Below are positions 26,721 through 33,859 of a stretch of 64,000 nucleotides of DNA, in pieces. Source of the stretch: Eledone cirrhosa (taxonomy: Eukaryota); NCBI GenBank assembly GCA_964016885.1, contig OZ024743.1:212536001-212600000 (forward strand), written 5' to 3'. Below the pieces are notes generated by a model, which saw only the letters and a program-made list of their open reading frames with translations, was not told where the DNA came from and ran no database searches. Position 1 is the stretch's first letter; each line of letters opens with the position of its first letter. Position numbers and translations under genes: made by a program.

Positions 26721-26973
26721 AGTTATGTAATAAACAACATAAGGCAATTATTCCATTTACCAGTGGTTTCTTAAAAGCAAAAAATTTGGCTTTCAATCCT
26801 CAGAACGAAAAAATCTTGGTCTGTTTATTGAATTTGGATTTAAAAACAAAAATGTAATCTATATGAAAGTGAGGCTGGAGAAAGAAGAAGGAAAGGAAAA
26901 ATAAAATAAAACCACACATGCAAACACACACACACACATCACACAAAAGCATACATACACACACACACACACA

Positions 26974-27018
<45 letters not shown>

Positions 27019-27619
27019 CACTCATACATACACACACACATATACACATACATATGTGTATATAAATACACACATACACATACATACGCACATAAATATC
27101 AACACATCCATAGATACACATACATATATACAACCATACACACATATATATATATAGCAATATAAATATATATATATATATATACACATACACATACATA
27201 GCCATACACACATACATATACAAACATACATACATGCACACAATCATACCTATATGCACACGTACATACATACACATACATAAATGCGTACATATACATG
27301 TACAAAATTATAAAAATATACACTCCTCTACATATTCACACACGCAAATAAATATAAGAAAAAATATATATAAAAAAAAAAATAATAATAAAGATTATTA
27401 TACAGTTGACAGCGATACAAACGACGGGTAGATGAACAGACACGCGTGGTAAGCAATACACACAAATGCACGTACACATACGTACGAAAAAGTAAATACA
27501 TACACACACTCTCACACATAAATATATGAATACAAATACATAAACACATACATACACATACACAAATACATACACAAACACGCACACACACACGTATACA
27601 ATTATACACACACATATAC

Positions 27620-27652
<33 letters not shown>

Positions 27653-27754
27653 AATACATACACACACATACATACACACACATACATACATACATAGCTA
27701 TACAAATACGTACATATCATAAACACGCACAACCAAATACAAACACACACACAC

Positions 27755-27787
<33 letters not shown>

Positions 27788-29832
27788 TGTGTGTAAAACT
27801 CAATCTTAGATAATTCATATGAACCTTACATATACATATATATAGTAGTAAAGTAATAAGCAACATAAGGCAATTATTCCATTCACCAATGGTTTCTTAA
27901 AAGCAAAAAATCTTTGCCTTCAATCCTCAGAATGAAAAAAACCTGATCTATCTACATATACACATATATACACATATATATATATATATATATAAACATA
28001 CATACACATACTTATTGGTATGTGAAGGGCAAGGCAAAAAGAATACATGGTGGGGGGGGGAAGACATAGGAAAAGGTGAAATATAAGGGGAGATAATAGA
28101 GAAAAAAAAGAGTACAGAACGTGGATTCAGCAAATAAAAAAAACCGTAGCTGAAGTAAAGAGCAGAGAAGGAGTTCAAGGCGGTTGATTTATCATAGGAG
28201 TGTCAATCCAGTTACAGATCAGATGTGATTTCAGATGACAGCATCTGAAAATCTCAGTCTTTGAGTTAAGGCAAGCGGAAGTGGCTCTCAAGTTTAGCAA
28301 AATCCTATATTTTTCTGTGGTACACAAAGAACAATTCTTTGTGCTCCTTTGGTACTCCCTCGAATGGTCTAAGATAGACCAATCGATAGAGTACTTGATG
28401 TTACTATCCTTGAATTCCCACACCTTACTTGCGAGGGCCGTTGATGTTCGTTTATCGGAATGCTTAAAAGAAGCGACATGTGAGTAAAATCTGGTTTTAA
28501 ACCTGTCCTGGGTCATACCGACATATCGCTGACTCCTGGCTGGCTGGTTGTTGATTACCGGTGTTATTTTAGCCTCATAAACAACAGATTTGGTGTTACA
28601 TTTACCCTGCAATGGGCATTCATCCGGCTTCCTGCAACTGCATCCTGGATTTATTCTCGTATGATTTGAACTGGTGATCTTGGACTTCATAGATGGGCAA
28701 CAAGAGTAACTGATCTTAACTACGTTCCTATTAAATATCTTATAATACCTATGATTAGGAGGAAAATGTTTGTCTAAGAGTTCAAGGAATTTCCTTCCTA
28801 CATTAATTTTGACAGTTAGAGAGAAGGGGGGGTGTGAACCAAATAATTTTCCTTTTCCTGTTATTGTGGTTAGTTTTAGGGGGGGAGTAGGTAAATAAGA
28901 AATTTTTTCTGTAAAACCGCTGTTCTTAAGGGCTTTATTATAATAAAGGGCGGCTTTATTAAAAATGTCTATAGATGGAGATAAGGTAGAAATCCTACGG
29001 CTAATGTTAGGAATAAGATTATTAAAAACTATAGGGGGATGGCAAGACTCTTTGTGTATATACCTAAGATTTTCATTAGGTTTATGATAGGGTTTAAAAG
29101 AGGCGGTAAGTAGATCAAGATTAATATCAAGAAAGTTAGCATTAGTAAGGTTCGTATCTATAGTGATTTTAAAGTTAAGATTAGCAAAAGTATTGATTAA
29201 ATCTTTACGGAATTTATCAAGGTTATGGCCGTTGGTGGTATGAGAAACTGCTAATCCGTCATCACGGTATAAACCGATATTATGGGAAGGAAATTTCTCT
29301 TTGAGGGTGTGGAGAAGGAATAATTCTACTAAGTCACACACATCCGCACCGTCATATGAACCCATTGCAACATCAAAAGAGTTTTCAGGGTTTGACTTTT
29401 TAACCCAAATATTTTCATTAGTAAAGAGTAAAGTGTTTCTAGCATGAAAGATAATGTCTTCTTCTAATTTAGAAATATTAATGAAGGGTCTTGCAAAATC
29501 TAAGGCATTAGTTAATAAGGAAACAGTAATAGAGGGGTAAAAATCGACAATATCAAATTGGGTAAATCTACACTTATTTTTACCTTGTATATTATTAAAC
29601 CAAGAAATAACAGAGGAAGTATTTAGCCACTGTGATAGGTCAGTGTTAGTTCTAATTTCGAGAATTATTTTTCTTAAGATTTTTTTACTTGCAAGGCCAA
29701 CTTCGGATTTAGCCGGATTAATCAGTCTACAACTAGGTCGATTAGTAAAGTCCAATTTATGGTCTTTAAGGGTAATATATTCTTTACGCTTAGCTAGGGT
29801 TTCAATCCGGTTGTCTATTTTTAAAGAACTAG
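26721..29832 (-). mobile_element. Naiad-like PLE, 5'-truncated inverted copy (ORF 28175-29851: RT and GIY-YIG)
   Basis: QFDIVDFYPSI, MGSYDGADVCDLV, GLYRDDGL, CSC...CPLQGKC, VVY...YVG, CSLC...EK; mirror image of 30614-33780. Confidence 0.93.
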
Positions 29833-29868
29833 TCTTTAAATCCAAATTCAATAAACAGACCAGGATTT

Positions 29869-29928
29869 TTTCATTCTGAGGATTGAAAGCAACATTTTTT
29901 GCTTTTAAGAAACCACTGGTAAATTGAA
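29869..29928 (+). ncRNA. Hammerhead in the Naiad pLTR (GUA copies also at ~33691-33750 plus and ~26751-26810 minus)
   Basis: ttcatt-CTGAGGA-ttgaaagc/gcttttaa-GAAA-ccactg-GTA-aat(t/g)gaa. Confidence 0.8.
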
Positions 29929-32563: not shown

Positions 32564-32655
32564 TAATTGCCTTATGTTGCTTATTACTTTACTACTATAT
32601 ATATGTATATGTAAGGTTCATATGAATTATCTAAGATTGAGTTTTACACACACAC

Positions 32656-32703
<48 letters not shown>

Positions 32704-32805
32704 TTGTATTTGGTTGTGCGTGTTTATGATATGTACGTATTTGTATTTGTATAGCTATGTATGTATGTGTGTGTGTGTACGTATACATATATGTGTGTGT
32801 ATGTA

Positions 32806-32858
<53 letters not shown>

Positions 32859-33294
32859 ATATATATGTGTGTGTATAATTGTATACGTGTGTGTGTGTGC
32901 GTGTTTGTGTATGTATTTATCTATGTGTATGTATGTGTTTATGTATTTGTATACGTATATTTATGCGTGAGAGTGTGTGTATGTATTTACTTTTTCGTAC
33001 GTATGTGTACGTGTATTTGTGTGTATTGCTTACCACGCGTGTCTGTTCATTTACCCGTCGTTTGTATCGCTGTCAACTGTATAATAATCTTTATTATTAT
33101 TTTATATATATTTTTTCTTATATTTATTTGTGTGTGTGAATATGTAGAGGTGTGTATATTTTTCTAATTTTGTACATGTATATGTAAGCATTTATGTATG
33201 TGTATGTATGTACGTGTGTATATAGGTATGATTGTGTGCATGTATGTATGTTTGTATGTGTGTATGGCTATGTATGTGTATGTGTATGCATGTG

Positions 33295-33326
<32 letters not shown>

Positions 33327-33503
33327 TATTTCTATTTCTATATATATATGTGTGTATATATGTGTGTGTGGTTGTATATATGTATGTGTATCTATGGATG
33401 TGTTGATATTTATGTGCGTATGTATGTATGTGTACATGTATGTGTATGTGTGTATTTATATACACATATGTATGTGTATATGTGTGTGTGTATGTATGAG
33501 TGT

Positions 33504-33549
<46 letters not shown>

Positions 33550-33859
33550 ATGTATGCTTTTGTGTTTGTGTGTGTGTTTGCATGTGTGGTTTTATTTTAT
33601 TTTTCCTTTCCTTCTTCTTCCTCCAGCCTCACTTTCATATAGATTGCATTTTTTTTTTTAAATCCAAATTCAATAAACAGACCAGGATTTTTTCATTCTG
33701 AGGATTGAAAGCAAAATTTTTTGCTTTTAAGAAACCACTGGTAAATGGAATAATTGCCTTATGTTGTTTATTACATAACTATTAAGCTCTGTTACCTACA
33801 TAGAGCACTTTTTTTCCTGGACTTTTCCGACGGAATTACTTCATATATATATATATATG

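Follow-up and report, generated by a model that had tools for sequence, protein, structure and literature searches.

The question raised by this locus is how a retroelement comes to carry, inside its own 3' UTR, a second hammerhead ribozyme whose cut site reads GUG, and what that copy does there. The locus lies in a stretch of 64,000 nucleotides from Eledone cirrhosa (contig OZ024743.1, positions 212,536,001 to 212,600,000 of the forward strand), here called the window. A first-pass annotation had proposed that the internal copy is a built-in dimer partner, which activates the terminal ribozyme without cutting the RNA internally.

The element and its class

The window holds one Penelope-type insertion in a TA run, in which an inverted, 5'-truncated arm is fused to a forward copy (Table 1). 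The forward copy runs in the order 5' pLTR, ORF, 3' UTR and 3' pLTR with tail, and its ORF is interrupted by an in-frame stop at 31474-31476. The arms are sister copies, with ORFs 98-99% alike and sister rows at 100/99 in the ORF tree. Since they belong to one insertion, their internal hammerheads are not independent; the annotation's statement that GUG stands in both element copies is right as to the letters, but these copies are two arms of a single event.

Table 1. Parts of the Penelope-type insertion, in window coordinates
Feature	Position	Strand	Details
Inverted 5'-truncated arm	26720..29832	-	ORF part, 3' UTR, tail-less 3' end in TA run
Terminal hammerhead of inverted arm	26751..26810	-	GUA; C3 at 26803, N17 at 26758
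Internal hammerhead of inverted arm	27877..27937	-	GUG; C3 at 27930, N17 at 27884
Inverted-arm open frame	28175..29832	-	RT core, CxCx5C linker, C-terminal GIY-YIG
5' pLTR	29833..30030	+	Hammerhead 29869-29928, GUA, C3 at 29876; one stem I mismatch
RT-then-GIY-YIG ORF, Hydra type	30142..32265	+	RWK, DKT, YRDD, YVGMT, CxxC, CxH
Self-insertion of the element's own end	32489..32597	+	5'-truncated, in (TA)n run
Internal hammerhead within self-insertion	32503-32563	+	GUG; C3 at 32510, G17 at 32556
3' UTR between both hammerheads	32598..33656	+	Microsatellite-rich
3' pLTR with tail	33657..33845	+	Terminal hammerhead 33691-33750, GUA, C3 at 33698, N17 at 33743

The annotation had called the element a Naiad, which the domain order and motifs contradict: the GIY-YIG domain is not N-terminal (YRDD precedes YVGMT), the motif is DKT rather than DKA, and hammerheads are present. 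Judged by the domain order and motifs of its predicted protein, it is a Hydra-type Penelope-like element (PLE). RWK is found at residue 37 and DKT at residue 114, with no DKA or DKG in the ORF, and YVGMT lies in the C-terminal part. The CxCx5C linker reads CSCRKPDEC in the minus arm and carries a C-to-Y change in the plus arm, and the endonuclease motifs CxxC and CxH are CSLC and CPH. The Hydra clade is characterised by a C-terminal GIY-YIG, RWK, DKT, CxCx5C, CxxC and CxH in the available text of Craig et al. (2021, PMC8557442), and this element shares with it a single ORF with RT followed by a C-terminal GIY-YIG, all of these motifs, a pLTR hammerhead (with a type I fold here), (TA)n targets, an inverted 5'-truncated arm and a tail at one end only. 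It differs from the Hydra-clade elements described in that text in its second, internal hammerhead, which is predicted to be uncleavable, and in a unit length of about 3.8 kb, against "generally <3 kb", because of its microsatellites. In Naiads, according to the same text, the endonuclease is N-terminal, the motif is DKA and canonical hammerheads are lacking; none of this applies here, and the likeness to Naiads lies in the Penelope-type tandem or inverted structure and the (TA)n bias. Pfam gave no significant family match for the ORF, which is uninformative for such divergent elements.

Two further Penelope-like ORFs are seen in the window. One, at 33860-35540 (+), is more distant and starts directly after the TA run that ends the element (RT part 45% and C-terminal part 31-42% identical). 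The other is a remnant at 56957-58189 (+), with 42% identity in the RT and 26% in the C-terminal part; a weak hammerhead-like motif lies about 1 kb 3' of it, at 59188, and its N17 may be a G, although the register is uncertain.

Terminal and internal hammerheads

Five hammerhead-like motifs lie in the region, three of the end type with GUA and two internal with GUG. The annotation had read the pLTR hammerheads as GUA and a second hammerhead, about 245 bp past the stop codon, as GUG with its core and stems preserved, and both readings are borne out. The internal core of the forward copy begins 245 nt past the stop at 32265. The core (CUGAGGA/GAAA), a 10-bp stem II, a 3-bp stem III and a 7-bp stem I are all intact in both internal copies, and stem III is palindromic (ACCA-N-UGGU). 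The loop letters att given by the annotation do occur, but as a minor variant, seen by eye in 3 of the first 100 of the 740 GUG matches in the genome. A loose core pattern matches the window 27 times, where chance alone would give 1.06. The copy in the 5' pLTR, at 29876, has a stem I mismatch and did not pass the stem filter. Rfam gave no hammerhead match at E<=1 in 22000-38000, which is again uninformative for elements this divergent.

The terminal copy has what defines a type I hammerhead, namely CUGANGA, GAAA, three helices and an NUH site. It resembles the minimal, dimeric type I PLE hammerheads in the part of Cervera and de la Pena (2014, PMC4209133) drawn on here in its short palindromic helix III and long helix II. 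It differs from them in having no G10.1-C11.1 closing pair, which is replaced by U-A here, and by C/A or A/A in related families.

The internal copy, by comparison, has no NUH cleavage triplet. A G at position 17 blocks hammerhead cleavage by pairing with C3. The annotation's premise that NUG is essentially uncleaved agrees with the available parts of PMC3138052, where NUG triplets are reported as uncleavable.

GUG as a lineage trait

The annotation had proposed checking whether GTG is conserved across genomic copies, and it is. The family motif has 5557 exact matches in the genome, with GUG in 10 of the first 100, and a GUG-specific pattern has the 740 matches already mentioned (by eye, U at 15.4 accompanies GUG in 44 of the first 100). 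A pattern for the 3' flank of the internal copy has 148 matches, of which the first 100, by eye, read G in 88, A in 10 and C in 2; of five non-G loci read, L051 is internal with GUA, L054 is internal with GUC and the other three are of the end type. To sample without regard to the ribozyme, loci were anchored on the end of the ORF, which has 865 matches, and the first 100, all on one contig, were analysed. Among them are 51 loci with an internal GUG, 3 with an internal GUA, 29 with a terminal copy only (one of these is a deletion in the youngest branch) and 17 with no hammerhead within 5 kb. Collapsed to 86 clusters, the corresponding figures are 46, 2, 24 and 14. This means that 51 of the 54 ORF-anchored loci with an internal copy read GUG. 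In a control family, searched with slightly different patterns, G17 has 10 matches against 1643 for A17. GUG is a lineage trait, and G17 is fixed in a large lineage.

Other sources of the G can be set aside. Mutation after insertion is rejected by the share of GUG among the first family matches, by its occurrence in one main clade and by the control counts, and an assembly artefact by the number of GUG matches in the genome. ADAR editing finds no support, with A to G making up 2 of 13 stepwise internal changes. A few single copies fall outside the series: besides L054, L302 has GUA with the flank of the GUG stage, and L284 has GUG in a GUA background. L284 could suggest a second origin of G17, yet background change could account for one copy in about 15.

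Origin by self-insertion

The internal hammerhead lies in a 5'-truncated copy of the element's end, about 105 nt long, that inserted into a (TA)n run of the element itself. This copy starts at ATAGACCAGG and stops inside the TA run, 39 nt past the cut site, as tail-less pLTRs do. Both empty and filled sites are seen at the same TA run before TTTTAGAG, and in L233 and L234 the site is filled, the copy reads GUA and the long UTR is still upstream. Of 30 loci anchored immediately downstream of this TA run, 3 have the end of another Penelope family inserted in it and flanked on either side by the element.

An early-stage pattern has 86 matches, and reading every one of them gave 14 internal GUA copies (8 with the downstream end visible), 41 internal GUG, 2 internal copies unread by script (both GUG by eye), 26 end-type copies and 3 unplaced. 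A cleavable internal copy therefore did not block transposition. In an ORF tree of 74 rows, each 600 nt or longer, which is rooted at its midpoint and whose bootstrap had not fully settled, 21 rows without the internal copy are split from 53 rows with it (100/99). The GUA rows are basal, with L284 among them, and 45 rows form the main GUG clade (100/97), in which two show no internal copy. The empty sites, the 14 GUA intermediates and the tree give the order none, then GUA, then GUG. That the internal copy was gained rather than lost follows from the insertion signature, not from the root of the tree. The copy is also dispensable in an older branch, which lacks it and yet transposed.

Six stages can be told apart: no internal copy; GUA; GUG with U7; G7, to which the window copy belongs; A7 with a broken stem II pair; and U15.4 with a broken stem I pair. 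Their groups number 5, 14, 41, 10, 16 and 22, with three GUG loci excluded as displaced or partial copies. The mean ORF distance within a stage drops from about 0.04 to 0.022 in the fifth stage and 0.016 in the sixth. These two stages are the youngest, are weak in predicted partner folding and account for 38 of 48 staged ORF-anchored GUG copies. G17 arose early, 5 of 31 synonymous steps after the GUA stage, and the lineage then grew from at least 14 to about 740 matches. The internal copy outlasted the loss of the adjacent long UTR segment, and its spacing to the terminal hammerhead ranges from 652 to 3726 nt among copies.

Signs of constraint on the internal fold

Between the GUA stage and the youngest stage, 3 of 51 paired or core sites changed in the internal copy (G17 not counted), and none of its 11 core letters did; the terminal copy changed at 0 of 51. 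Set against the internal copy, the synonymous yardstick is 36/132 (p 0.0007), the fourfold yardstick 16/70 (p 0.009), the UTR yardstick 44/265 (p 0.03, or 0.075 with the pre-terminal segment) and the UTR1 yardstick 19/146 (p 0.13). The internal copy's own unpaired sites changed at 10/44 stepwise (p 0.018) or 7/44 end to end (p 0.11), and three of these changes are clustered in 5 nt and could stem from a single event. Paired and free sites have similar singleton rates (0.008 and 0.010), so low mutability is not the cause of the slow change at paired sites. To judge from these comparisons of sites, the slow change at paired and core positions gives genuine, though modest, evidence for constraint.

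The three fixed changes at paired sites all lie at helix ends, and each breaks a pair and is uncompensated. Since U15.4 and an unpaired first stem II position are also found in the terminal hammerheads of related families (1643 matches), these two states may be tolerated and need not be decay. In the A7 background, a U-to-C change at the first stem II position is common to 5 of the first 100 matches listed. N7 changed from U to G in the internal and terminal copies at the same step.

In the related family of 1643 matches (e.g., L357 and L361), the terminal hammerheads have ACCUUUGGU as helix III and a long bulged stem II, but the family shares its 3' flank and tail with this one; evidently it can cope with a weaker dimer helix. 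Just before the 3' pLTR, a pyrimidine-rich segment at 33590-33652 changed at 2 of 63 sites along the lineage, and a promoter or binding role is suggested for it.

Predicted double-hammerhead folding

In a double hammerhead, the catalytic strands of each copy cut the site of the other (as set out in the accessible part of PMC4209133). The predicted co-fold minimum of the window's internal and terminal copies is such a structure, in which C3 and G17 pair in the blocked core and the core over the GUA site is open. Joined by a 12-nt linker, this pair has a predicted open-core probability of 0.23; two terminal copies have 0.013 and the monomer 0.016. The energy of the double hammerhead with the terminal copy, from oldest to youngest and with one example per stage, is -30.8, -30.3, -24.2 and -21.9 kcal/mol, compared to -31.4 for two terminal copies. 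By stage and with the same linker, an internal-enzyme core is predicted on the terminal site with a median probability of 0.19, 0.29, 0.33, 0.012 and 0.0035 (n = 7, 17, 3, 9 and 17 pairs), while two terminal copies give 0.19, 0.068, 0.021, 0.11 and 0.021, and monomers 0.003-0.026. The predicted partner folding thus falls about 25–90-fold in the youngest lineages, where the last median equals the monomer value (0.0029). On these models the partner idea is structurally possible in the window's sublineage, and the internal copy is predicted to be able to act as a partner in the middle stages, not in the youngest.

The annotation's suggestion that the internal copy may activate a ribozyme about 1.2 kb away fares less well at that distance. 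In the native 1.3-kb context the internal copy is predicted to be shut on itself, with the partner state at 2e-5 against 7e-6 for the monomer, which means that across the real 1.2-kb spacer a gain is predicted, but only of about 3-fold and at negligible absolute levels. These numbers come from equilibrium models without protein, and the long-range values ignore co-transcriptional folding and protein help; one PLE hammerhead does need such help, according to the available text of PMC11167929.

The double-hammerhead mode predicted here is like that of metazoan PLE hammerheads in the part of PMC4209133 used. However, the partners in that model are two pLTRs, both of which are cut, whereas here two copies stand in the 3' UTR of one element and one of them is NUG. 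The double hammerheads of viroids and satellites are also built of two hammerheads with merged helix III, but their partners are identical cleavable repeats, and the available text of PMC6466107 describes no dedicated uncleavable partner.

Element ends and the cut site

In a sample biased by the choice of loci, 335 distinct end matches were found, with 3' ends clustered at +31 to +41 and +100 to +102 from the cut site; the family's 3' ends lie 39 and 101 nt past the terminal cut site. None of the 335 starts or ends exactly at the cut site, the nearest being starts at -2 and +2 and an end at +3. We infer that integration templates run past the terminal cut site, either as uncut RNA or as re-joined circles. 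The later loss of partner ability would fit a cost, because terminal cutting promoted by a partner would remove start sites or re-open circles.

Passenger or partner

The internal hammerhead is probably a silenced passenger, which arose by self-insertion, was then changed from A to G and is slowly losing its fold. The truncated end of about 105 bases entered the TA run of the 3' UTR and was carried first as GUA, and the later A-to-G change likely stops the copy from being cut. Within a double hammerhead, it is the partner's catalytic strands that would cut the internal site, so only a change on the cut-site side would protect the RNA. G17 may be the simplest such change, and its predicted pairing with C3 would lock the copy shut on itself. 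Extra cutting at the terminal site would be a cost unless the ends are re-joined, as templates run 39 or 101 nt past it. The slow change, the helix-end location of the fixed changes, the occurrence of U15.4 and of an open first stem II pair in related families, the intact core, the copy's survival past the loss of the adjacent UTR segment and the growth of the lineage count against a silenced passenger. In a rival and rather unlikely reading, the internal copy is a built-in dimer partner, whose catalytic strands would serve a GUA site in either pLTR by way of a common helix III, with G17 sparing its own site; it would have worked at least in the middle stages, to which the window copy belongs. 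The co-fold minimum and open-core probability of the window pair and the slow change at paired and core sites favour it, and PLE minimal hammerheads cleave as dimers in the part of PMC4209133 seen here. The 3' flank also changed at 4/22 sites in internal copies against 0/22 in terminal ones (p 0.054), which argues that the fold was kept rather than an RT start region. Yet the older branch transposed without the internal copy, the predicted ability is lost in the youngest and most active branch, with the true spacer the internal copy is predicted to be self-locked, and no copies end at the cut site. Poseidon hammerhead mutants also left in vitro insertion unaffected, in the available text of PMC11167929. 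Nor did two targeted patterns bring up a second family with an internal GUG: all 23 of their matches (13 and 10) are end-type or truncated by eye. Among 30 loci read of the 1643-match U15.4 family, one has a second same-strand hammerhead within 1.5 kb, which is GUA and of the ACCACUGGU type. The annotation's partner proposal is thus upheld in that G17 is fixed and the window pair is predicted to form a double hammerhead with an open GUA core. "Built-in" is too strong for a late self-insertion that is absent from an older transposing branch, began as GUA and is predicted to have lost its partner folding in the youngest copies. A past role as helper of the terminal ribozyme, with the internal copy its partner at least for a time, is rather unlikely.

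The fold could also have been kept without catalysis, as a self-locked hairpin that prevents mis-pairing or binds protein, or its likeness could be refreshed by conversion from the thousands of terminal copies. The C3-G17-locked monomer is indeed the predicted minimum, both alone and in native context, and the U-to-G change of N7 in both copies at one step hints at conversion. This is nevertheless improbable: protein binding of the hairpin is hypothetical, and the letters specific to the internal copy (32499, 32522 and 32556) persisted through the stages, which means that conversion tracts would have to be short. Least probable of all is that these hammerheads hardly cut in the cell and that G17 is neutral and hitch-hiked with a master lineage. 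The GUA intermediates that transposed with their downstream ends, the missing ends at the cut site and the weak in vitro activity of PLE hammerheads (in the part of PMC4209133 at hand) would all fit. However, the terminal fold shows strict conservation, core and stems persist in related families although their sequence has diverged, and the background of G17 in the control family is low.

Whether passenger or partner, the family offers a natural six-step series in one genome, with no internal copy, then cleavable, blocked and weakened versions. It permits a direct test of asymmetric-dimer cutting and of whether cutting helps or harms transposition. If the internal copy is the silenced passenger preferred here, the series clearly documents how a retroelement took up its own self-insertion and silenced it. 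Should the partner role be true, this would be a natural enzyme-only hammerhead subunit, which was not found in the literature searched; that search gave no report of an uncleavable internal partner in PLEs, and Lunse et al. 2016 and Craig et al. 2021 supplements lie outside its scope. On this tentative account, one letter would have turned a captured ribozyme copy into a subunit that acts on the element's ends in an asymmetric double hammerhead, cutting them and perhaps joining them again. Its catalytic half might, though we doubt it, have been selected over about 0.27 synonymous changes per site and later tuned down, with the steps preserved in the genome.

Other repeats in the window

Short ends of another Penelope family lie in TA runs at 25530, 55559 and 59779 (-) of the window and at L064, L086 and L087. 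Ends of this type have a hammerhead with a long stem II and an AUA site, and they also occur within the 3' UTR of the element's family. An inverted and tandem array of 310-bp units at 47121-50237 has a CTGATGA...GAAA core in each unit and is retrozyme-like. More canonical-looking hammerhead cores are found at 38503, 43563 and 45097-46137, three of them with a GUC site and in inverted arrangement. A tRNA-like gene or SINE head (26435-26507, +; ARAGORN tRNA-Ser CGA; Rfam tRNA, 48 bits) lies 210 nt from the insertion. Many of the family matches listed on one contig are tiny pLTR fold-back insertions, consisting of inverted pairs only 90-260 bp apart.
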